From an uncultured Lentimicrobiaceae bacterium (GTDB lineage Bacteria; Bacteroidota; Bacteroidia; Bacteroidales; UBA4417), in assembly GCA_964420555.1 (NCBI GenBank), contig CAYQTT010000014.1, positions 23,686 to 87,685 on the forward strand: a DNA stretch of 64,000 nucleotides. The letters run 5' to 3'. The notes under the pieces are model-generated. The model saw only the letters and a list, made by a program, of their open reading frames with translations. It made no database searches and was not told where the DNA came from. Below are positions 5,730 to 17,943 of the stretch, piece after piece. The position numbers were made by a program, and so were the translations under genes. Every line of letters starts with the position of its first letter. The stretch's first letter is position 1.

Positions 5730-6311
5730 ATGATCATAGATACTACCAGAGATTCAATTTTAAGTGTAGCAACCAGGTTGTTTAGTCGTTTTGGGTTTCA
5801 TAAAACTTCTATGGACGAAATTGCTAAAATTGCCAGGAAGGCGAAAGGATCTTTGTATTATCATTTTGCTAGTAAAGAAGAGTTATTCAAAGAGGTAGTA
5901 TCAATGGAAATGGTAAACCTCAAAAACCAATTATCCCTTATAATTAGTAATCCTGATTTAAGCGCTGCGTTGAAAATCAAGGAATATCTTATTAAAAGAA
6001 TGGAAGTTATAAATACTGCTGCAAATTATCATGAAATACTTAGAGCTGACTTCTTTGAACACTTCGATTTCATTGATGATTTACGGACTCAATTAGATAT
6101 CTGGGAAAAGGAAAATCTGAAAAAGATTATTGTACAAGGAGTCGACAGTGGTGAATTCTCTAATATTGTAGATATTGATATTTTAATCGATATGTTACTT
6201 ATGACGCTGAAAGGATTTGAGATACCATTCTTCCTGCAAAGCAAATATGAGAAATATGCTCCTTATTTTGATGGTTTAATGGGAATAGTAATAAAAGGAA
6301 TGGCAAAATAA
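5730..6311 (+). CDS. TetR/AcrR family transcriptional regulator
   Basis: N-terminal HTH (GFHKTSMDEIAKIARKAKGSLYYHFASKEELF). Confidence 0.92.
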   Translation: MIIDTTRDSILSVATRLFSRFGFHKTSMDEIAKIARKAKGSLYYHFASKEELFKEVVSMEMVNLKNQLSLIISNPDLSAALKIKEYLIKRMEVINTAANYHEILRADFFEHFDFIDDLRTQLDIWEKENLKKIIVQGVDSGEFSNIVDIDILIDMLLMTLKGFEIPFFLQSKYEKYAPYFDGLMGIVIKGMAK

Positions 6312-6383
6312 TTTTTTTTACTCTGAAATGACTAAAAAACAATATTAGTATAAATAGTGCTTTAATTTGAAAATTTATTTGTT

Positions 6384-7223
6384 ATGCGAATAACAGGGAT
6401 AAGTAAAAGTGAGTATAACTTTAAAAACAAGGTTATTGTAATAACCGGTGCTTCCTCCGGAATAGGAAAAGCATGTGCTTTTGAATTTGCCGGCCAAGGT
6501 GCAAAGGTAGTGCTTGCTGCCAGAAATATAGCTGAACTGGAAATCATTGAAGACATAATCAACAAGCAGGGTGGTGATGCATACGCTGTAAAAACAGATG
6601 TCAGGAACTTTGAAGACTGCAAGAAATTAATTGATAAAACGGTTGAAAAATACGATAAAATAGATATACTCATTAACAATGCAGGGATTTCAATGAGATC
6701 AACTTTCGAAGATTTGGATTTATCTGTCATAAAAGAAGTGATGGATACAAATTTTTATGGAGCCGTTTACTGTACCAAACTTGCATTACCTTATTTATTA
6801 AAACAAAAAGGAACAGTAATCGGAATCTCTTCTATTTCAGGGCTAACCCCTTTACCGGGTCGAACGGGGTACTGTGCATCAAAATATGCTTTGGATGGAT
6901 TTTTGAACACGCTACGTATGGAAAACATAAAAAAAGGACTAAATGTATTACTCGTTCATCCGGGTTTTACAAGCTCAAATATCCGAAAGTCTGCTTTAAC
7001 CCATAGCGGCATGACTCAGAATGAAACACCCAGGGATGAAAAAAAGATGATGTCATCTGAAAGAGTTGCCCATAGTATTGCAGATGCAACTTATAAACGG
7101 TATCGGGATTTGATTCTGACAAACCAGGGAAAGCTTGTTGTCTGGCTTTATAATATTTCTCCAGGTATAACTGACAGGATCATACTAAAAGAAATGTCAA
7201 AAGAACCGGATTCAGTCTTTTAA
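6384..7223 (+). CDS. Short-chain dehydrogenase/reductase
   Basis: TGASSGIG, NNAG and YCASK motifs. Confidence 0.92.
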   Translation: MRITGISKSEYNFKNKVIVITGASSGIGKACAFEFAGQGAKVVLAARNIAELEIIEDIINKQGGDAYAVKTDVRNFEDCKKLIDKTVEKYDKIDILINNAGISMRSTFEDLDLSVIKEVMDTNFYGAVYCTKLALPYLLKQKGTVIGISSISGLTPLPGRTGYCASKYALDGFLNTLRMENIKKGLNVLLVHPGFTSSNIRKSALTHSGMTQNETPRDEKKMMSSERVAHSIADATYKRYRDLILTNQGKLVVWLYNISPGITDRIILKEMSKEPDSVF

Positions 7224-7277
7224 TTTTTTTTACTTACTGGCGACCAGAAAACGAATTTAGTTCAAAAAATTAATGAG

Positions 7278-7451
7278 GTGAAAACAAAACTATTAATAAA
7301 AGAATTTGTACAGGATAAAATTGTTGGCGCCATTGCTTCAACTTCGAATCGCATAGTTGAAAAAGATATGGGTAGATTTTTCCCACCAACCGACATGATA
7401 TTATGGCGATCCTTTAGCTCACGAATACTTGTGAAAATAAGAAAGATGTGA
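7278..7451 (+). pseudogene. Possible 5' remnant of a PmtA-like phospholipid methyltransferase
   Basis: Short GTG-started ORF (57 aa, not in ORF track) beginning KEFVQDKIVGAIASTSNRIVEK, similar to N-termini of that family, then diverging. Confidence 0.3.
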
Positions 7452-7677
7452 GTAACTAGCGAAGCGATTTCATTAACAGCTTTGAAATCAATTACAACGT
7501 TAATAATTCCATCTGACCTTTAAAAATCACCTGCGAAGCAAGCATTAATGCAGCTGAAAATAAGCAATCAAATAATAAATTAATAACAGATGAGACTTTG
7601 TTTAACTGACTTGAAAAGTACATTCAATCGCTTTCAAAAATTAGCTTTATGATAACATTTACTTAAGACAATGTAAG

Positions 7678-8304
7678 ATGAAAAATCAATTGAGCAAAAT
7701 AATTTTGGTAGTAGTATTTATTGCCATCGCGGTTATTAAATCTTTCGGGCAAGTTGATCTTGGCATCAAGAGCGGAATAAATATCTCGACACAATCCGAA
7801 CTTGGAAATCTTTGTAACAATAATAATTTAATCGCTGGATTTAATATCGGAGGAATTGTCCGTTACCATGTAAATGACTGGTTAGCTTTAAAGAGTGATT
7901 TCATGTACAGTCAAAAAGGCAAAGAGTATCATAGCACAATTGCAAATAACTCAAATGTAATTACAGATAGATTCAACTATGTAATTATCCCTGTAAAGGC
8001 TGAGTATTCAATAAATACCGGCACTGCCCCAGGCAATAAACAGAAACTGTTTCTTGCCGCAGGTCCTTATTATGGGTTTCTTTTAAATGCTGACAGGGAG
8101 AACAATAGCGCAAACACCAACCTGAAAGAAATAACTGCAAACAATGATTATGGATTGAGTTTTGATTTAGGATTTGAATTTCCTGTAAAAAGCAGATCAA
8201 TTACTGCTGGCATTAATTATGAAATAGGATTATCAAAAATTGCGCAATACGACGATGAATTGCGGAATAAGACAGTCTCGTGCAATATTGGATTTATTTT
8301 TTGA
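7678..8304 (+). CDS. Porin-family outer-membrane beta-barrel protein
   Basis: Signal peptide; GIKSGINIS start; FxAAGPYYGFL motif; terminal F. Confidence 0.8.
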   Translation: MKNQLSKIILVVVFIAIAVIKSFGQVDLGIKSGINISTQSELGNLCNNNNLIAGFNIGGIVRYHVNDWLALKSDFMYSQKGKEYHSTIANNSNVITDRFNYVIIPVKAEYSINTGTAPGNKQKLFLAAGPYYGFLLNADRENNSANTNLKEITANNDYGLSFDLGFEFPVKSRSITAGINYEIGLSKIAQYDDELRNKTVSCNIGFIF

Positions 8305-8373
8305 TAAGAAATGAATCTGAATCTTTAATTTAACTCAGTTTGAAGTAAAGCAACTTAATTAATGCGTTGATAA

Positions 8374-8610
8374 TTGGCCAAACACGATACTATGAAGATT
8401 CTGGAATACATAATTGTCGGTGCGTTTGTTATTGGCCTTGCTTTAGTAGTGGGAATAGGCTTTTTACAAATGATTGATGTAGTAAAAATAGCAATAATCT
8501 CTTTTCTGAGGAAACGGCATTTTTCAAATAAATGGAATACACTTCTGGTCGGCATAATTTTGGTTCTTCTCGTAAGTCTGGTCATAATTGCATATCATTT
8601 CTTCGCTTAA
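8374..8610 (+). CDS. Small two-TM hypothetical protein
   Basis: 78-aa ORF with two hydrophobic segments, co-oriented with neighbours. Confidence 0.4.
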   Translation: MAKHDTMKILEYIIVGAFVIGLALVVGIGFLQMIDVVKIAIISFLRKRHFSNKWNTLLVGIILVLLVSLVIIAYHFFA

Positions 8611-8757
8611 TTACGATGTAAACAAATAAATATGATTTCCAAATTCTAAAACTCAATTTTGACCCCTCCAGTAAAGTGAGCTACAGCTTCTGAATTTGAG
8701 TAACGAAAAATAAGCATGCGAATTAGATTAAAAATTAGGATTTGAAAAACCAGTAAA

Positions 8758-8997
8758 ATGTCACGAAAGGAAATTGAAACTATTTTAACTGAAATACTAA
8801 TGGATAAATTAGAAATTCCTGAAACTAAAATCAGTCTTGAATCAACCATGAAGGATTTAGGTGCTGATAGTCTACAGGAAGTTGAAATAATTCTTGAAAT
8901 CGAACAAAAATTTACCATTTCTATTCCGGACGATCTTGAAATGGAAGCTCAAAAAATTTCAAGTCTTTGCAATTTTATTGAAAAGAAATTGTCATAA
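8758..8997 (+). CDS. Acyl carrier protein 1
   Basis: Acidic 79-aa protein with DLGADSL phosphopantetheine motif. Confidence 0.9.
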   Translation: MSRKEIETILTEILMDKLEIPETKISLESTMKDLGADSLQEVEIILEIEQKFTISIPDDLEMEAQKISSLCNFIEKKLS

Positions 8998-9156
8998 TAA
9001 CCAACAATTCAACATATTTTAAAACACATGGTGAACAATGCATTGATTGTAAACACTTCAAAACCACAATCACAAAGGTTATCCTGTTGAAAACAAGAAC
9101 AAGGAGATTAAAATATTACAGCAATTTAACAGAGTAAATTAATAAAAACCCAAACA

Positions 9157-9393
9157 ATGAAACTTCAGGAAATTGAAACTATCGTATCTAAAATAATAAT
9201 GGAAAAATTAGGAATTTCTGAAGCTGATATCAGTCATGAATCAACTTTAAAAGATTTAGGCGCCAACGATCTTCAGGAAGTTGAAATAATTCTTGAAATC
9301 GAACAAGAATTTGGCATTTCTATTCCCGACTATCTTGAACCCGAAATTTTTAAAATTTCAACCCTTTGCGATTATATTAAAAAGAAGGTATAA
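9157..9393 (+). CDS. Acyl carrier protein paralogue lacking the conserved Ser
   Basis: Close paralogue of 8758-8997 (33-bp identical stretch) but the motif reads DLGANDL. Confidence 0.8.
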   Translation: MKLQEIETIVSKIIMEKLGISEADISHESTLKDLGANDLQEVEIILEIEQEFGISIPDYLEPEIFKISTLCDYIKKKV

Positions 9394-9456
9394 TTGGGTT
9401 TAATAAGACTGCTGTTTCACAAAATAAAAATACAATCAAATTAATTAAGTTTAAAA

Positions 9457-10005
9457 ATGAGAACTATTTCCAAATTTGTACTAACTGGTGTTTTAGGCTG
9501 GAAAACAAAAGGCGAATTCCCTGACATTAAAAAATCCGTTGTAATATTTGCGCCGCACACAAGTTATTGGGATGGTTTCTATGGCAAGCTTTATTTGATG
9601 CAGTTGGGTATTAAGTATAAGTTTTTAGTAAAAAAAGATTTTTTCAGATTTCCGTTAAAGTACTTTTTCAGAATTTTTGGCTCTATCCCTGTGTATCAAA
9701 ACAAAGAATATGTTGATTACGTTGCCGGATTATTTAACAATAGCAAAGAGCTACATATAGTGTTGTCGCCGGAAGGACAACTGGCAAAAATCACACGTTG
9801 GAAAAAAGGATATTACTATATGGCCCAAAAAGCAAATGTGCCAATTATAGTCGCATATCTTGATTACAAGAAAAAAGAAATCGGAATTAAGGGAGTAATC
9901 GATAATCTCGAAAATCTAAATACTGTGATGTACCAAATAAATACAATGTATAAAGATGTAACAGCAAAATATACTGAAAATTTTTCACTTGAATTTAAAA
10001 TGTAG
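9457..10005 (+). CDS. PlsC-like lysophospholipid acyltransferase
   Basis: PHTSYWD (HxxxxD) and SPEG motifs. Confidence 0.85.
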   Translation: MRTISKFVLTGVLGWKTKGEFPDIKKSVVIFAPHTSYWDGFYGKLYLMQLGIKYKFLVKKDFFRFPLKYFFRIFGSIPVYQNKEYVDYVAGLFNNSKELHIVLSPEGQLAKITRWKKGYYYMAQKANVPIIVAYLDYKKKEIGIKGVIDNLENLNTVMYQINTMYKDVTAKYTENFSLEFKM

Positions 10006-10008
10006 AAT

Positions 10009-10884
10009 ATGAAACAAACAGTAGCACTTGTTTTGGGTAGCGGTGGCGCTCGTGGAACAGCACATATAGGGGTAATTCATGAACTTGTAAATCGAGGGTA
10101 TGAAATAAGTTCCATTTCAGGCACTTCAATGGGGGCATTAGTAGGTGGAATATATGCATCTGGCAAATTAGACGAATATGAATCTTGGTTATGCTCCCTA
10201 AGTAAAATGGATGTCTTCAATCTGGTCGATTTCACCATGAGTAAGCAAGGCATTATTAAAGCGGATAGGGTATTAAAAGAGATAAAGAAATTCATTCCCG
10301 ACAGGCAAATTGAAGAATTACCAATCAAATTTGCTGCTGTTGCCACAGATTTAAAAAACAGAGAAGAAGTTGTAATAACCGAAGGAAGTTTGTTTGATGC
10401 CATTCGGGCTTCAATATCTATTCCGATGGTTATTACCCCTATGCAAAAAAATGACACCTTCTTTGTTGATGGAGGTGTTGTGAACCCGGTACCTGTAAAT
10501 CGTGTTTTTCGTCAGCTTAATGATATTATGATTGCAGTGAATGTAAATGCATATATCCCATATCAAAAACTTGCGGTTGATGCACCCGAATTGGCATCCA
10601 TCGAACAACTTAATACTGGCAAACTAAGTTTCTTCCAAAGTAGGTTAAACATGCTGTTTCCTGCAAGTAAAAAGGAAAGCACAGGGTATTTTAACCTGAT
10701 CGGCGAATCCTCAAGTCTAATGTTATCACAAATTACGAAGTTAACGCTTCAATTGAATCCACCCGATATGCTTATCGAAGTATCAAGAAATGCATGCGGG
10801 ACCTTTGATTTTTATAAAGCCACGGAGCTTATCGAAGCAGGGAAAGAAGCAACAAAAGAGTGTTTAGAAAAAATGACTAAATAA
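10009..10884 (+). CDS. Patatin-like phospholipase (RssA-like)
   Basis: GSGGARG, GTSMG and DGG motifs. Confidence 0.9.
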   Translation: MKQTVALVLGSGGARGTAHIGVIHELVNRGYEISSISGTSMGALVGGIYASGKLDEYESWLCSLSKMDVFNLVDFTMSKQGIIKADRVLKEIKKFIPDRQIEELPIKFAAVATDLKNREEVVITEGSLFDAIRASISIPMVITPMQKNDTFFVDGGVVNPVPVNRVFRQLNDIMIAVNVNAYIPYQKLAVDAPELASIEQLNTGKLSFFQSRLNMLFPASKKESTGYFNLIGESSSLMLSQITKLTLQLNPPDMLIEVSRNACGTFDFYKATELIEAGKEATKECLEKMTK

Positions 10885-10958
10885 GATATGGAATGCCGCT
10901 ATCAGCAATGATTTGTGCCTACCTGGAATTTAAGTTTAACAATTAATTTTAACAAAAG

Positions 10959-12002
10959 ATGAACAACAAAATAATTTTAACAGCATTAGCATCCATAGTA
11001 TTGCTTTGGTTAACAAGTTGCACCGGTAAAAAAGCCAATAACCCGGACTCAGGTCAAGGGTTTCCTGTAAAAGTTCAAAAAATTGAAAGTATGCAGGAAA
11101 ATCTGGCAAACGACTATATCGGTATTGTCGAGGAATCTGTATCTGTTCCGGTGAGTTTTCTAACTATCGGCATGGTAGAAAAAGTATATGTTGCCGAAGG
11201 ACAAAAAATAAAAAAGGGCCAGCTATTGGCAGAACTCGATAACAGCAATTACCTGAGCATGTATCTAATGTCGTTGTCGAAAGAAAAACAAGCCGAAGAT
11301 GCATTCAACAGGCTTTCTGATTTATACAAAAAAGGAAGTTTGCCGGAAATAAAATACATCGAAATCCAGACCGGTGTTGACCAGGCTCGTTCAGCTACTC
11401 AGATTGCCTTAAAAAACATGAACGATTGTAAATTATATGCCCCAATGGACGGAATTATTGGAAAACGTTCCATAGAGCCGGGGATGAGTGTAATGCCTGC
11501 TATAACTGTTTTCAAAGTGGTTAAAATCGATAAGGTATATATTAAGGTTTCTGTACCTGAAAACGAAATATCATCAGTCAAAACAGGAGACAAAGCAGAA
11601 ATCAGCGTTACAGCATTGGATAATCAACAATTTGAAGGGTCAATCGAAGAAAAAGGGGTAATGTCCAATCCATTATCACATACTTACGAAATAAAAATAG
11701 CCTTACGCAACCTGGATGAAAAGCTCATGCCGGGTATGGTTTGCAAGGTTACGATTCAGAATAACAAAGCAACGGATAAGGTAGTTGTACCTTCCAATGT
11801 CGTTCAGATAGATAAATACGGACAAAAATACTTGTATGTAGCTGATACCAACACCAACAAAGCAAAAATAAAATATGTGCAAGTTGGGTCACCGTACAGA
11901 AACGGCGTAATCGTCACTACCGGATTAAAAGCCGGCGATCAATTAATTATTGAAGGCTATCAAAAAATAAGCGAAAACACCACTATTCAAATTGTAAAGT
12001 AA
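10959..12002 (+). CDS. RND efflux periplasmic adaptor (lipoprotein)
   Basis: Lipobox LTSC, lipoyl-like GQxIKKGQLLA, hairpin and beta-barrel pattern; precedes the RND permease. Confidence 0.92.
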   Translation: MNNKIILTALASIVLLWLTSCTGKKANNPDSGQGFPVKVQKIESMQENLANDYIGIVEESVSVPVSFLTIGMVEKVYVAEGQKIKKGQLLAELDNSNYLSMYLMSLSKEKQAEDAFNRLSDLYKKGSLPEIKYIEIQTGVDQARSATQIALKNMNDCKLYAPMDGIIGKRSIEPGMSVMPAITVFKVVKIDKVYIKVSVPENEISSVKTGDKAEISVTALDNQQFEGSIEEKGVMSNPLSHTYEIKIALRNLDEKLMPGMVCKVTIQNNKATDKVVVPSNVVQIDKYGQKYLYVADTNTNKAKIKYVQVGSPYRNGVIVTTGLKAGDQLIIEGYQKISENTTIQIVK

Positions 12003-12003
12003 T

Positions 12004-15000
12004 ATGAAAAAGAAGATAGATATTGTTGCATCTGCTATGCGTCATTGGCAGATTGTATTTTTAATTACTTCGTTATTGGTGTTATTTGGTGTTTACGCGC
12101 TGTTTAATATGCCTAAACAGGAATTTCCAAAATTCACTATTCGCCAGGGATTAGTAATTGGCGTTTATCCCGGGGCTACTTCTGCAGAAGTTGAAAAACA
12201 ACTAACAACCGCTGTCGAAAGATATCTTTTCAGTTATAAAGAAATAAAGAAGGCAAAAACATATTCCCTCTCAAAGGATGGGATGATGATCGTTTTTGTA
12301 GAGTTAAATGATGATGTTAAAAATGCAGATGAATTCTGGTCAAAACTGAAACTTGGATTGAGTAGCTTCAAAGCTCAATTACCTTCGGGTGTACTGGCGC
12401 TTATTGCCAATAATGATTTTGGCGATACTTCGGCATTATTGATCACATTGGAGTCGGACAATAAAAGCTATCGCGAACTGGAAGTTTATATGAATAGGCT
12501 GGAAGACCGGCTGCGAAGAATAGAATCAGTATCAAACCTTCGCGATTATGGATTGCAGAGAGAACAGATCAGTATATACCTGGAGAAAGAAAAATTGACA
12601 AATTATGGAATAAGTTCCACTACTCTTATGGCTAACCTGTTTACACAGGGTTTTACTACAATGAGCGGTTCTATTGATAACAGCCAACTTGTTGCGCCCA
12701 TCCATGTTTCGAAATCCTACCTGAACGAAAAGGATATTGCGGAACAAATAATCTACTCCGATCCTACCGGGAATATAATCAGGCTGATGGATGTGGCACG
12801 AGTGGTAAGGGAATATCCCAGGCCAGACAGTTACATCAAAAATAACGGGAAAAAGTGTCTTTTGATTTCGATGGAAATGCAACAAGGAAACAATATTGTA
12901 CAGTATGGTAAAGATGTGAACAAGACTCTAGCGGAATTTCAAAAAGAATTACCACAAGGGGTTAATATCGAACGCGTTGCCGATCAAACAAAAGTAGTTG
13001 GTGATTCTGTAAATACCTTTCTTAAGGAACTTCTCTTTGCAATAATTGCTGTAATATTGATAACTATGGTATTATTGCCTTTCAGGGTTGCTTCTGTGGC
13101 AGCTTCTACTATTCCTATCACAATTTCTGCTTCCATAGGGATACTGTATATGTCAGGTATTGAGCTTAATACTGTAACGCTGGCTGCTCTTATCGTTGTT
13201 CTCGGAATAATTGTGGACAACTCTATAGTAATAATTGACAGCTATATGGAAATGCTTGACCATGGAATATCAAGATGGAATGCAGCTATAAGTAGCGCAA
13301 AAGGATTCTTTAAAGCAATATTTTCAGCTACACTTGCCATCACCATTACCTTTTTCCCATTTTTATTTGTACTTAAAGGGATGTATAACGAGTTTGTACA
13401 ATTATTTCCCTGGACTATTGCAATGACATTGGGAATTTCACTTCTGGTTGCTATGCTACTAATACCTTTTCTACAATATTCCTTTATCAAAAAAGGATTT
13501 CAACAATCAAAAAGGATAAGAAGAAACAATAGACGTAATTTTTTGGATATAGTTCAATCAACCTATGAAAAAGGGTTGGAGAAGGCGTTTAAATACCCTC
13601 GCATAACAATACTTTCGGGTCTTTTATCGGTGGTAATAGCTGTTATTCTATTTATGTTTATTCCTCAACGACTAATGCCTATTGCCGAACGCAACCAGTT
13701 TGCCGTTGAAATTTATTTGCCGCAAGGTAATTCGTTAAACCAAACTGCTATGGTTGCTGACAGCCTGGAGAAAATTCTACGTAAAGATGAACGTATCAAA
13801 GCTGTCACTTCCTTTATTGGTACCAGTTCTCCGCGTTTTCACACAACTTATGCGCCTAATCTGCCTGCGAAAAATTATGCCCAGTTTATTGTGAATACGA
13901 GTTCAAATAAAGCAACAGTGGAATTATTGGATGAATATTCAGGTAAATATGCAGATTATTTCCCCAACGCCCATATCCGGTTTAAACAATTGGATTATCA
14001 ACCGGTAGCGGCTCCTATTGAAATAAGAATATCCGGTGATAGTATTTCTGATTTGAAATTGACGGCCGATTCGTTGATAAAAAAAATGCGAAAAGTAGAT
14101 GGATTGGTATGGGTAAGGACTAATTTTGAAGAGATGTTGCCCGGAATGCGGGTGGATATTGATCCTGTTGAAGCCAATCGCCTGGGTATAAACAAAACTA
14201 CTGTTTCTACTAATCTGGCCTTGCGTTTTGAAGGTTTGCCAGTGACTACTATATGGGAAAATGATTATCCCTTAGCGGTAAAGTTAAAAGCCGAACGGGA
14301 AGGGGATGTAAATTATAATGAAATTGAAAATGAGTATATTCATTCGTTTATTCCCGGGATATCTGTTCCATTGCGTCAGATAGCAAAAGTAAATCCTGAC
14401 TGGAACCAGGGACAGATTGTTCGACGTAACGGCGTTCCGACAATCAGTATATATGCCGATGTGAAACGCGGAGTGAATACGAATGCTGCATTTTCGGAAG
14501 TTAAAAAAATAGCTGAAAAATACCCATTGCCGAGAGGTACAAGTATGAGTTACGGAGGTGCTTACGAATCAGATGCAGAAGCATTACCTCAGATTTTAAG
14601 TGGATTGGGGATGGCTGTATTTATTATTTTTCTAATCCTGATGATTCATTTTAAGCGAATAAACATGGCGCTATTGGTTATGTCGTCAATAAGTTTAAGT
14701 TTAATGGGAGCTGTCATAGGTGTTTTGCTGCTAAGACTTGAATTGGGTGTTACTGCCATTTTAGGTATTGTCAGCCTTATGGGTATTCTTGTACGTAATG
14801 GTATCATTATGCTCGATTACGCGGAAGAACTGAGATATAAGTATAAAAAGACGATACTTGAAGCAGCCATGGAAGCCGGAAAACGTAGAATGCGTCCTAT
14901 CTTCCTCACTTCGGCAGCAGCCTCTATGGGGGTTGTTCCCATGATATTAAGCAAAAGTGCGCTTTGGGAACCTATGGGAACTGTTATCTTTTTTGGAACA

Positions 15001-16461
15001 TTAACTTCAATGGTATTACTGGTATTTATTTTACCTGTTGCCTACTGGCTTATTTTCAAAAGAGTAGATGAAAGGAAAGAAAGAAAGAGATTAAAAGCCT
15101 TATCAAGCAGAAGAATAATAAAACCCGCTTTAATAACCATAGTTCTGCTTTTAGGATTAAATAATTTTGTTTCTGCCCAAAACAAGTATTCGTTGGAACA
15201 ATGCAAAACATTTGCCTTGCAGAATAATGCCATGATCAGGAACAGTAACCTGGAAATAGAAGCTTCAAAACAGGTAAAAGATGCGGCTTTCACCAATTAC
15301 TTCCCGAAAGTAAGTGCTACAGGAATGGCTTTCCGTTTCAACGAACCTTTGTTTAAGTATAGTATTCCAGGAGGTAATCTTCCGGTGTACGATGGTAATC
15401 CGGCCAACCTAGCAACAGCAACCCAGTTTGCATACTTCCCGGGCATTTCGCTTGCATTGCTCGACAAAGCAAACATAGCTACAATTACCGCGGTTCAACC
15501 TGTTTATGCAGGAGGTCGTATTGTTACCGGGAATAAGTTAGCTCAACTGGGGGTTGATGTAAAAAAAAGCATGCTTGTTTTGTCAAAAAACGAAGTTTTA
15601 TTAAAAACAGAGGAACAATACTGGCTCATTGTTTCGCTCAACGAAAAGATGAGAACCCTGCACATGGTTGAATCGCTCCTTGATACGGTTTACAGGCAGG
15701 CAAACGATGCTTATTCTGCCGGATTAATAAACCGTAACGATGTTATGAAAGTAACTATCAAACAAAGTGAGTTGCAGATTAACAAGATAAAGCTTGAAAA
15801 CGGCATTAAACTGGCAACGATGGCTTTCAGCCAATATGTTGGAGTTCCTTACGATTCTACTACGGTATTAAGCGATACCCTAGCCATAGGCCAAACCCCT
15901 TATGTGGTTTACATGGATGCAAGCCAAGCTTTATCGAACCGTGAGGAATACAAACTATTACAGCAAAGTGTAAAAGCCGAAGAGCTGCAAACAAAATTAA
16001 AGCTTGGAGAGTATATGCCTGAAGCAGGTGTTGGCGCAGGCGCCTTATACTACGATATACCTGATAAGGGCACAACCAATACCATGGTATTTGCATCTGT
16101 AAAGATTCCCATTTCCGATTGGTGGGGAGCTTCACACACCCTAAAGGAAAGAAAATTTAAGGAAGATATTGCCCGTAATAACAGCCAGAACAACTCGGAA
16201 CTCCTTTTGCTGCAAATACAAAAAACATGGAACGACCTTGATGAAGCCTATAAACAAATTGAAGTAGTAAATCAAACCATAAAACAAGCAGAAGAAAACC
16301 TACGGATTAACAGCGATAACTACAAGGCAGGAATTGTGAATGTTTCGGACATGCTTGAAGCCCAGGCGATGCTTCAACAGGCAAAGGACCAGATAACTGA
16401 TGCAAAGGCCAGTTATAAAGTAAAACTTGTATCCTATTTACAGGTAACCGGACGATACTAA
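12004..16461 (+). CDS. AcrB-family RND permease fused to a C-terminal TolC-family outer-membrane domain
   Basis: Residues 1 to ~1020 carry VDNSIV, VRNGI and RMRPIFLT motifs. From Q1059 the sequence is TolC-like (SLEQCKTFALQNN...). Confidence 0.88.
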   Translation: MKKKIDIVASAMRHWQIVFLITSLLVLFGVYALFNMPKQEFPKFTIRQGLVIGVYPGATSAEVEKQLTTAVERYLFSYKEIKKAKTYSLSKDGMMIVFVELNDDVKNADEFWSKLKLGLSSFKAQLPSGVLALIANNDFGDTSALLITLESDNKSYRELEVYMNRLEDRLRRIESVSNLRDYGLQREQISIYLEKEKLTNYGISSTTLMANLFTQGFTTMSGSIDNSQLVAPIHVSKSYLNEKDIAEQIIYSDPTGNIIRLMDVARVVREYPRPDSYIKNNGKKCLLISMEMQQGNNIVQYGKDVNKTLAEFQKELPQGVNIERVADQTKVVGDSVNTFLKELLFAIIAVILITMVLLPFRVASVAASTIPITISASIGILYMSGIELNTVTLAALIVVLGIIVDNSIVIIDSYMEMLDHGISRWNAAISSAKGFFKAIFSATLAITITFFPFLFVLKGMYNEFVQLFPWTIAMTLGISLLVAMLLIPFLQYSFIKKGFQQSKRIRRNNRRNFLDIVQSTYEKGLEKAFKYPRITILSGLLSVVIAVILFMFIPQRLMPIAERNQFAVEIYLPQGNSLNQTAMVADSLEKILRKDERIKAVTSFIGTSSPRFHTTYAPNLPAKNYAQFIVNTSSNKATVELLDEYSGKYADYFPNAHIRFKQLDYQPVAAPIEIRISGDSISDLKLTADSLIKKMRKVDGLVWVRTNFEEMLPGMRVDIDPVEANRLGINKTTVSTNLALRFEGLPVTTIWENDYPLAVKLKAEREGDVNYNEIENEYIHSFIPGISVPLRQIAKVNPDWNQGQIVRRNGVPTISIYADVKRGVNTNAAFSEVKKIAEKYPLPRGTSMSYGGAYESDAEALPQILSGLGMAVFIIFLILMIHFKRINMALLVMSSISLSLMGAVIGVLLLRLELGVTAILGIVSLMGILVRNGIIMLDYAEELRYKYKKTILEAAMEAGKRRMRPIFLTSAAASMGVVPMILSKSALWEPMGTVIFFGTLTSMVLLVFILPVAYWLIFKRVDERKERKRLKALSSRRIIKPALITIVLLLGLNNFVSAQNKYSLEQCKTFALQNNAMIRNSNLEIEASKQVKDAAFTNYFPKVSATGMAFRFNEPLFKYSIPGGNLPVYDGNPANLATATQFAYFPGISLALLDKANIATITAVQPVYAGGRIVTGNKLAQLGVDVKKSMLVLSKNEVLLKTEEQYWLIVSLNEKMRTLHMVESLLDTVYRQANDAYSAGLINRNDVMKVTIKQSELQINKIKLENGIKLATMAFSQYVGVPYDSTTVLSDTLAIGQTPYVVYMDASQALSNREEYKLLQQSVKAEELQTKLKLGEYMPEAGVGAGALYYDIPDKGTTNTMVFASVKIPISDWWGASHTLKERKFKEDIARNNSQNNSELLLLQIQKTWNDLDEAYKQIEVVNQTIKQAEENLRINSDNYKAGIVNVSDMLEAQAMLQQAKDQITDAKASYKVKLVSYLQVTGRY

Positions 16462-16615
16462 AAATAAACATTGAAAATTTCAAACTTAACCACAATGTGT
16501 AATGAAGTGTTGGGAAATACTATGGAGCCGTTCCTTGCAATTGAGAACATGTGCTTATTCAATTCCATGCAAAAGTCCCCAAAGTATGAATTTAAAACAA
16601 TAAATAATAAATGTG

Positions 16616-17314
16616 ATGCAAAAAATATCAGTCATAATTTGTGCCTACAACGAGGCAAACACCATAAAAGATGTTGTAACAAGGGTCTGTGATTATTTCT
16701 TTGATGAAGTAATTGTAGTAAACGATGGTTCAACGGATGATACGGATTCCGTTTTAAAGGAATTAAATCTCTTATACAATTTCAAATACATTGTTTTACC
16801 TGAAAATAAAGGGAAAGGTTTCGCAATGGCAACCGGAGTTGAAAATGCGGGCAGCGAAATAATTGTTTTTATTGACGCCGATCTATCCAACTTACAATAC
16901 GAACACTTTGCACAGTTAATAACGCCTGTGTTTAACAGAGAAGCTGATATGGTTCTTGGGCAGGCAACCGAAACCCTGATCGACTACAAAGTGAATCCTT
17001 TCAAGTCGTTTACAGGCCAAAGAGCCATGTTAAAAATAGATATTTTACCGATTTTGAAAGATATGAAAACTTCAAAATTCGGTGTTGAAACATTGATAAA
17101 CTTATACTATCAGGCTAAGGAAAAAAGGGTAAAATATGTTATGCTCGAAGACTTGATACATCCTACTAAATTTGGGAAAACAAATCAATATCAGGCAACA
17201 AAAGAATTTATTTTTGAAGGGCACCAAATAGCACTTACGGCATTCAATAATTACGGCTTAATCTCAAAAATAATAATGAATAAGTTCAAAAGGACAATGT
17301 TGGAAATAAATTAG
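16616..17314 (+). CDS. Glycosyltransferase family 2
   Basis: IICAYNE, VNDGSTD, NKGKG and FIDADL motifs; ATG at 16616. Confidence 0.9.
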   Translation: MQKISVIICAYNEANTIKDVVTRVCDYFFDEVIVVNDGSTDDTDSVLKELNLLYNFKYIVLPENKGKGFAMATGVENAGSEIIVFIDADLSNLQYEHFAQLITPVFNREADMVLGQATETLIDYKVNPFKSFTGQRAMLKIDILPILKDMKTSKFGVETLINLYYQAKEKRVKYVMLEDLIHPTKFGKTNQYQATKEFIFEGHQIALTAFNNYGLISKIIMNKFKRTMLEIN

Positions 17315-17316
17315 AA

Positions 17317-17943
17317 ATGGATACAATCTTAGTGAAAGGAATGATAATAGGAATTGTTGTATCTATTTCCTTTGGTCCGGTGGCATTTACAACTATTCAA
17401 AAAACTGTATATAGCGGCAAACTGAGGGGCTTAATTGCAGGGCTGGGCGTTACAATTGCTGATACCATTTATTCAATAGTTGCAGCATACAGCGTGAGTT
17501 CAGCTTCACACATTATCAACGATTTCCAGGTTCCGATCCGTTCAATCGGAGGCTTGATACTTTTGGCAGTAGGTATAAAAATAATAGTCGAAAAATCTTC
17601 TTCTATATCTGGTGATCTTAAAAATAATTTTAGTTCAGCCGGTGCCGATTTCTTCTCATCTTTTTTTCTTGCACTCTCAAGCCCACAGACTGTTTTAATG
17701 TTTGTCCTGCTTTTTACCACCTTTAATATTATCCCTAAGGAACCCAATAGTTTGCAGCTATTTGAACTTTATTCCGGAGTATTTATAGGAACAAGTATGT
17801 GGTGGGGATTCATAGTTTGTTCAACAGATACTTTTCGAAATAGATTGCGCTTTCATAATCTACCCTGGTTTAATAAGATAATTGGAAGTTTTGTAATGTT
17901 GTTTGGATTAATTTCAATTGCAAGCCTGTTTGTGAAAATATAA
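17317..17943 (+). CDS. LysE-family translocator
   Basis: SISFGPV start, GLIAGLGVTIAD motif, six TM segments. Confidence 0.85.
   Translation: MDTILVKGMIIGIVVSISFGPVAFTTIQKTVYSGKLRGLIAGLGVTIADTIYSIVAAYSVSSASHIINDFQVPIRSIGGLILLAVGIKIIVEKSSSISGDLKNNFSSAGADFFSSFFLALSSPQTVLMFVLLFTTFNIIPKEPNSLQLFELYSGVFIGTSMWWGFIVCSTDTFRNRLRFHNLPWFNKIIGSFVMLFGLISIASLFVKI

Follow-up and report, generated by a model that had tools for sequence, protein, structure and literature searches.

The stretch of DNA analysed here (64,000 nucleotides, called the window below) comes from an uncultured Lentimicrobiaceae bacterium of the order Bacteroidales, and at positions 12004 to 16461 it carries a single gene for two proteins, an AcrB-like RND permease and a TolC-like outer-membrane factor (OMF), each of them complete. 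The two parts are joined by a linker with the layout of a signal peptide (residues 1018-1058), after which the OMF part takes up residues 1059-1485. From the features of this linker and its homologues, we consider it likely that the gene product is a precursor polyprotein cut by signal peptidase I (SPase I) between A1058 and Q1059. The parts of the gene are as follows, in window positions.

12004..16461, + strand: RND::OMF precursor open reading frame (ORF); uninterrupted, 1485 aa, 166.6 kDa calculated
12004..15054, + strand: RND permease part, residues 1-1017 (PF00873), up to the end of transmembrane helix 12 (TM12; helix 989-1017 in the AF2 model)
15055..15123, + strand: basic linker FKRVDERKERKRLKALSSRRIIK, residues 1018-1040; n-region of the internal signal, predicted to be cytoplasmic
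15124..15159, + strand: h-region PALITIVLLLGL, residues 1041-1052; 12-residue hydrophobic core, would-be TM13, N-in/C-out
15160..15177, + strand: c-region NNFVSA, residues 1053-1058; V at -3, A at -1
between 15177 and 15178, + strand: predicted SPase I cut, A1058 (15175-15177) / Q1059 (15178-15180)
15178..16458, + strand: mature TolC-like OMF, Q1059-Y1485, 47.7 kDa; two OEP repeats, AF2 and Foldseek support

In the textbook view, the three proteins of a tripartite efflux pump are made separately before they assemble, and how a cell matches the inner-membrane part to the outer-membrane part in amount and position is an open practical question. Here the two parts are made as one chain, 1:1, and split orthologues are available that allow a direct comparison with the fused family.

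Pump and channel in one reading frame

A fusion of RND and TolC proteins in a single frame had been claimed by a first-pass annotation of the window, with estimates of ~165 kDa for the whole chain and ~47 kDa for the channel. The uninterrupted ORF and the Pfam domains of both parts bear the fusion out, and the calculated masses (166.6 kDa for the full chain, 118.8 kDa for residues 1-1058 and 47.7 kDa for residues 1059-1485) match those estimates. The permease part is a full-length family match to PF00873 (ACR_tran; residues 12-1017 against profile positions 6-1020/1021, E 1e-168), and the OMF part holds two repeats of PF02321 (OEP) that extend to residue 1483 (E 1e-42) and were also found in the genome search. 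NCBIfam returned RND permease models together with the TolC model TIGR01844 over residues 1158-1484. By its cut-offs the protein belongs to neither the named multidrug (HAE-1) nor the heavy-metal (HME) subfamily, as the best match, RND_permease_2, reached 468 bits against a cut-off of 1250 and the CusA/CzcA model reached 345 against 701; the RND part is thus a divergent RND protein that falls below the cut-offs of the named subfamilies.

The AF2 model of residues 1-1063 (79 alignment rows; mean predicted local distance difference test score [pLDDT] 80.6, predicted template modelling score [pTM] 0.74) shows the 12-TM fold with two large periplasmic loops, and Foldseek placed it with AcrB, AcrD, CmeB and MtrD (E ~1e-56, TM-score 0.81-0.85). 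For residues 985-1485 (45-row alignment), the pLDDT was 79.7 overall and ~90 in the OMF body, and the Foldseek matches were TolC (1ek9, E 4e-17, TMt 0.75), 7ng8 (TMt 0.79) and also OprM, VceC, CusC, CmeC and MtrE (E 1e-14 to 1e-18, TMt 0.70-0.79). A single-sequence phmmer search against the PDB aligned only the C-terminal half of the OMF, and weakly (E ~1e-4). In the pump, an alignment of 79 family members shows D405, D412 and R931 without exception, and the residue at 406 is Asn. The three invariant residues may be the counterparts of D407/D408 and the K940 region of AcrB, where the charged proton-relay residues of TM4 and TM10 lie; TM4 would then read D405-N406 where AcrB has two adjacent Asp. 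Taken by itself, each part is an ordinary RND or OMF protein.

If the stop codon of the RND gene had been lost through faulty sequencing or assembly, or through a recent mutation, the fusion would be an artefact or a decaying gene; this reading has only the rarity of such architectures in textbook systems in its favor. With the C-terminal third as the query and a length restriction to whole-protein candidates, the homologue search returned 455 database matches, which derive from assemblies of JGI, ENA, NCBI and Logan; of the 120 listed, nearly all were 1470-1500 aa long with both Pfam domains, and identity within the searched region went down to ~47% among the matches listed. The closest homologues (96, 93 and 92% identity) stem from independent assemblies and differ from the window within the linker by substitutions that keep the frame, which excludes a stop codon lost by sequencing error. 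The fused frame recurs not only in these 455 matches but also at full length in seven of the genome loci described below, the fused clade has long internal branches, and both domains keep many invariant columns. In view of this recurrence and divergence, an artefact is next to impossible. The databases name the matches 'AcrB/outer membrane protein TolC' (JGI) or only 'efflux RND transporter permease subunit' (NCBI), and where annotation names such a protein as a pump only, its channel goes uncounted.

The internal signal and its split counterparts

Beyond TM12 the chain reads FKRVDERKERKRLKALSSRRIIK-PALITIVLLLGL-NNFVSA|QNKYSLEQC, in which the basic string RKERKRLKALSSRRIIK (residues 1024-1040) is followed directly by PALITIVLLLGL. 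This is the layout of a Sec signal peptide, with RRIIK, PALITIVLLLGL and NNFVSA as n-, h- and c-regions and small residues at -3 and -1, and Q1059 follows the Q-rule of Bacteroidota. Its location departs from that of a canonical signal peptide, which is N-terminal: the signal starts at residue ~1036 of 1485, after 12 TM helices, and predictors that scan only N-termini for signals miss this exported OMF. The signal-peptide-like character of the linker, its V-S-A|Q junction and the lack of an in-frame ATG had all been pointed out in the first-pass annotation, and all three were confirmed: the strings that it quoted lie where it had placed them, A1058 and Q1059 are encoded on either side of the junction (nt 15175-15177 and 15178-15180), and GTG and TTG are absent as well as ATG, with zero in-frame occurrences of the three between residues 1014 and 1058. 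The nearest Met on either side is M1003 before the linker and M1077 after it. Because the linker of the window has no start codon, the OMF would be exported only within the fusion.

For a view of the whole family, 115 full-length fused homologues were aligned and their junction features were counted in 114. A residue pair [AGST]|Q follows the h-region in 111 of these 114 (97% Q at +1) and is A|Q in 101; two of the remaining three junctions read A|R, and one was missed by the anchor pattern. Position -3 is taken by L (46), V (22), A (21), S (7), T (6), I (4), M (4) or G (1), the best hydrophobic 11-mer has a mean Kyte-Doolittle value of 2.8, and the distance from Q+1 to the first conserved OMF motif is 2-5 residues (3 in 91 of 111). 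The linker sequence itself drifts, and what the fused homologues keep is the n/h/c layout and the Gln at +1. Met is absent from the linker in 69 of the 114, and 45 (~40%) keep a Met, often as MKPA, just before the h-region, at a point where the window has ATA (Ile). This Met is a relic of the old start of the OMF.

Scanning a single genome of each species yielded 59 loci. The full-length fused frame was present in seven of them (L001, L003, L004, L005, L006, L008 and L035), labelled Bacteroidales, Bacteroidetes or Rikenellaceae, and three others (L002, L007 and L054) are fused, but cut or interrupted. In L007 (frame 7712-11356, 1214 aa) and in L028 (8861-11371, 836 aa), whose bin is labelled Aminicenantes, the OMF frame enters the RND sequence upstream and stops short of a full RND; the two may represent fusions that were interrupted, faults of assembly or stages in between.

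In 37 loci the genes are split, and these loci belong to Ignavibacteriota, Melioribacteraceae and Chitinophagaceae, apart from a handful in bins with odd labels. The upstream gene is in view in 36 of them and is an RND gene, ~1035 aa where complete, with an acidic tail that ends in HRKDFDKVEESEVL before the stop. The open frame of the next gene overlaps the RND stop by 9-33 nt in all but two split loci, both from Chitinophagaceae, in which 11 nt separate the RND and OMF genes. The split OMFs are 45-56% identical to the OMF part of the window protein and start with a classical signal peptide of the pattern MKK..h-region..A|Q, for example MKKYIIICLIWICAFPVFA|QRALTLDESKQLALQNN, with Q at +1 in 32 of 37. 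In the joint alignment, the signal peptide of the split OMFs falls on the h- and c-regions of the linker, and the mature ends coincide. Fused and split loci also have the gene order TetR, membrane fusion protein (MFP), RND, OMF in common, with the MFP gene immediately preceding the RND gene in almost every locus of either kind and with patatin and glycosyltransferase family 2 (GT2) genes recurring nearby. Because of the aligned signal peptides, the coincident mature ends and the common neighbourhood, the linker is the retained ancestral signal peptide of a once separate OMF gene. A survey of fused against split homologues had been proposed in the first-pass annotation, and it is this survey that points to the formerly separate OMF gene as the source of the linker.

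The linker also seems to have been tuned after the fusion. Between the end of TM12 and the h-region, the mean net charge is +4.4 in the fused homologues (n=115), whereas the split counterparts sum to +0.5, made up of -1.1 from the RND tail and +1.6 from the n-region of the signal peptide (n=35; Mann-Whitney p 2e-14 for fused against split). Under the positive-inside rule, an internal N-in/C-out segment requires a positive cytoplasmic flank, and a basic shift is therefore what would be expected if the segment must still start translocation after fusion.

In a maximum-likelihood tree of the mature OMF parts, the eight fused rows form one clade (ultrafast bootstrap 95, SH-aLRT 81) that is nested among the split forms. 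The sister group of this clade consists of two split loci, L045 and L046. Together with L044 and L050, they are split orthologues with 45-52% identity to the OMF part of the window protein, and the bin labels among these four are Smithella, Acidobacteria, Clostridia and Spirochaetes, which suggests mis-binning or horizontal spread of the operon. Among 401 genomes spread evenly over the phylum, an orthologue (E <= 1e-80) was found in 17, and a frame of ~1490 aa only in the genome of the window and in one genome of the same order; the other 15 orthologue frames are 430-531 aa long. On this tree and this distribution, the fusion of the window type has a single origin, is confined to the order of the window and is young.

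Processing of the precursor and competing explanations

AcrB has 12 TM helices with cytoplasmic N- and C-termini, and by homology with AcrB the chain is predicted to leave TM12 on the cytoplasmic side. In the processing that we propose, the 12-TM pump would insert co-translationally, its C-terminus after TM12 would end up in the cytoplasm, and the basic linker would remain there. PALITIVLLLGL would then enter the Sec translocon N-in/C-out, just as an N-terminal signal peptide would, and start translocation of the 427-residue OMF, after which SPase I would cut behind V-S-A1058 and free the OMF of 47.7 kDa. The new N-terminal Gln (Q1059) would probably be cyclised to pyroglutamate, as in most SPase I substrates of Bacteroidota, and the freed OMF would proceed to the outer membrane, leaving a pump of 118.8 kDa that would retain the spent signal as a C-terminal 13th helix. 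With the MFP encoded upstream, the two products would make up an ordinary tripartite RND pump. The fusion itself would have arisen in the order of the window by loss of the RND stop codon in an overlapping rnd-omf pair, and it would guarantee equimolar and co-localised synthesis of pump and channel. The data show the architecture, how far it is conserved, its descent from split genes and the folds of both parts; from these we infer the topology of the linker, its cleavage, the formation of pyroglutamate and the 1:1 coupling as a selective benefit.

The genome of the window has one SPase I gene. SPase I substrates of Bacteroidetes carry Q at +1 in 71% on average (PMC5837995), and this Gln is cyclised to pyroglutamate (PMC5837995; PMC10653852). 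For Tanf_07615, a stand-alone 'OM efflux protein' of T. forsythia, mass spectrometry gave the N-terminus pyroGlu-EVLTLDQCR after ..PFCAMA/Q (PMC5837995 Data Sheet 2), and its mature-end motif is the same as VSA|QNKYSLEQCK here. Another T. forsythia protein, Tanf_07885, had a pyroGlu N-terminus (QTPAESDMTFLTEGHGK) measured after ..RNIRFTLSALVLFFMPFSSRLIA/Q (PMC5837995 Data Sheet 2). According to the authors, its signal peptide is not predictable from the annotated start (PMC5837995); this could reflect a mis-called start or another internal signal peptide.

The hydrophobic segment could instead be an uncleaved signal anchor, that is, a true TM13 by which the OMF stays attached to the pump, either spanning both membranes or forming a periplasmic domain anchored in the inner membrane. 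AF2 does model the h-region as a helix, and a covalent 1:1 complex is conceivable in principle. However, a core of ~12 residues followed by a polar, helix-breaking c-region has the length of a signal peptide and not of an anchor, and the strict small residues at -1 and -3 with Q at +1, kept in two unrelated fused families (the second is described below), would be purposeless if nothing were cut. Residues 1024-1063 have a pLDDT below 55, so the model gives no confident packing of the segment on the pump, as far as a packing like that of an accessory TM protein is concerned supporting neither view. In the TolC structure 1ek9 (Koronakis and colleagues, 2000), the first OMF helix is reported to pack on the periplasmic alpha-barrel, far from the inner membrane. 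The 2-5 residues that join the junction to the first OMF helix are too few to bridge to the outer membrane in the geometry of TolC and AcrAB-TolC, and because of this an uncleaved chain that places its barrel in the outer membrane seems geometrically implausible. A permanent anchor is accordingly very unlikely, and since the uncleaved chain is implausible, cleavage by SPase I is the best explanation of the junction.

The chain might also be separated by another protease, be it the lipoprotein signal peptidase, an intramembrane or a periplasmic one: a conserved Cys (C1066 in SLEQC) stands 8 residues past the junction, and many OMFs of the NodT/OprM type are lipoproteins. But a lipobox L-[AS]-[GA]-C was not found at the junction NNFVSA|QNKYSLEQC, where the Cys at +8 stands in an L-E-Q-C context that does not fit it, and this Cys is Ser in several homologues; lipoprotein processing of the NodT/OprM type was rejected on the missing lipobox. 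The small residues at -3 and -1 with Q at +1 are the SPase I signature of the phylum, and the stand-alone T. forsythia homologue is cut at A/Q, which makes a different protease very unlikely. Another way to a separate OMF would be translation initiation within the linker, the long ORF being fused only nominally, and in the 45 of 114 homologues that keep a Met before the h-region, dual expression is possible. Against this, Met is absent in the other 69, the window has, from residue 1014 to residue 1058, nothing better in frame than weak near-cognates like ATA, and ribosomes on the RND part would read through because the stop is absent. Internal initiation is highly improbable, and for the window itself it was rejected, as the linker has no ATG, GTG or TTG.

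Several points weigh against cleavage by SPase I as we propose it. The signal-peptide call comes from feature counts across homologues, and with a linker pLDDT below 55 the topology was taken from AcrB homology and the positive-inside rule. The Tanf_07615 peptide had a Mascot score of 30.8 against the study cut-off of 30 (PMC5837995), and that protein was likened to the window OMF by its mature-end motif. The plant-type glutaminyl cyclase PF05096 had zero matches in the genome, the animal type (broad M28) not having been searched. Finally, neither a natural RND-OMF fusion nor the processing of one turned up in full-text searches of the literature.

Related designs and the setting of the pump

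The genome of the window (5.6 Mb, 40 contigs) has three RND::OMF frames in total, the other two being of the CzcA/CusA type:

L060:3842-8233, contig 7, + strand: CzcA/CusA-like RND::OMF, 1463 aa, internal h-region ending A|Q
L061:2312-6658, contig 2, - strand: CzcA/CusA-like RND::OMF, 1448 aa, internal h-region ending A|Q

These two are 44% identical to each other, either is 22% identical to the window protein, and an MFP-sized ORF lies directly downstream of each. They follow the same design of RND, basic stretch, h-region, x-A|Q and OMF, with linkers that read ..FRKKLAKSVSMLLILILGTSLFSTAKA|QQAERISLQQA and ..RFKRNIKTLSIGIILLATAMPSFA|QSRPISLEEA, and the databases name such proteins only 'CusA/CzcA family heavy metal efflux RND transporter'. 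The CzcA-type family had at least 6863 matches among 8000 candidates scored, and the junction was [AG]|Q in 109 of the 109 full-length fusions sampled, with Lys/Glu occurring at -2. In the phylum sample, 58 of the 401 genomes have this family. Of its 61 matches there, 57 lie in frames of 1445-1504 aa; another, of 1151 aa, probably represents a fused frame that was cut, and three, of 421-439 aa, are clearly split. The presence of CzcA/CusA-type fusions in Bacteroidota, which the first-pass annotation had mentioned, is thus confirmed by two examples in the same genome and by their spread across the phylum. Compared with the window type, the CzcA type is much older and more widespread. Because the window family has split orthologues, the simplest history that we can infer is one of two separate fusion events. 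The contribution of the window is a young fusion, restricted to one order, whose many split orthologues reveal where its linker came from and how it was tuned after fusion.

A broader proposal, which we hold only tentatively and with considerable doubt, is that a one-precursor, two-membrane machine is obligatory and adaptive in the phylum. The channel would be made only as the tail of the pump, fed by a translocon-docked ribosome; SPase I would resolve the chain at a Met-less internal signal that obeys the Q-rule, and the spent signal would become a 13th helix. Bacteroidota would have evolved this design on two or more occasions, once in the old CzcA-type family and once, later, in the order of the window, and the design may replace the translational coupling by stop/start overlap of the split orthologues. 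Bacteroidota make little use of Shine-Dalgarno-led initiation.

Among known systems, the pumps encoded by mfp-rnd-omf operons, such as MexAB-OprM of P. aeruginosa, and AcrAB-TolC of E. coli for structures, have the same three components with an adjacent MFP gene, and the split orthologues of the window operon have this classical mfp-rnd-omf arrangement. Unlike in MexAB-OprM and AcrAB-TolC, pump and channel are here one translation product joined by an internal signal peptide, and the pump would keep an extra C-terminal helix after the predicted cleavage. The closest bacterial precedent in mechanism, by analogy, would be FbcH, the cytochrome b/c1 polyprotein of Bradyrhizobium japonicum, whose products are reportedly separated by signal-peptidase-type processing (work of Thony-Meyer, Hennecke and colleagues, 1989-1991). 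FbcH too is one ORF made of a polytopic inner-membrane protein, an internal signal sequence and a second exported protein, and the ORF of the window has this layout, with the cytoplasmic end of TM12 following from AcrB homology. The sequences are unrelated, and the FbcH products, subunits of a single complex, both remain within or attached to the inner membrane, whereas the second product here is destined for the other membrane. We know of no other bacterial polyprotein resolved by signal peptidase whose products go to different membranes, and if the proposed cleavage is true, the window protein would exemplify something rare in bacteria, a polyprotein taken apart by signal peptidase.

Viral glycoprotein polyproteins of flaviviruses and bunyaviruses likewise have an internal signal that restarts translocation and is cut by signal peptidase on the far side (PMC7926653), but they belong to the eukaryotic endoplasmic reticulum system and the proteins are unrelated. 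In their available text, a Chem Rev 2021 review of tripartite systems (PMC8277102), a survey of outer-membrane porin fusions (PMC4827864) and a Bacteroides transportome study (PMC6281302) describe no RND-OMF fusion. An 'acrR-RND-tolC' (PMC12669032) was considered as a natural fusion and rejected, since it is a locus of separate genes.

Two further genes of the window belong to the setting of the pump:

10959..12002, + strand: MFP (periplasmic adaptor) gene; TIGR01730 RND_mfp E 1e-58, HlyD_D23
5730..6311, + strand: TetR-family regulator gene (PF00440); candidate pump regulator, from synteny

The end of the MFP gene and the start of the RND::OMF gene are one base apart, and the two probably share an operon. 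In most related loci the TetR gene lies directly upstream of the MFP gene, and in the window lipid genes intervene; from synteny, the TetR protein possibly regulates the pump. The whole same-strand run (5730-17943, +) comprises genes for TetR, a short-chain dehydrogenase/reductase, an outer-membrane beta-barrel, two acyl carrier proteins (ACPs), an acyltransferase, patatin, MFP, RND::OMF, GT2 and LysE, and homologues of the patatin and GT2 genes recur beside fused and split orthologous operons alike. Since the pump sits among lipid-type genes and the patatin and GT2 genes recur, its substrate may be a lipid or glycolipid rather than a drug. The two ACP-like ORFs stand in tandem at 8700-9400 (+); the first has the usual ..GADSLQ.., and the second reads ..GANDLQ.., with Asp in place of the phosphopantetheine Ser.

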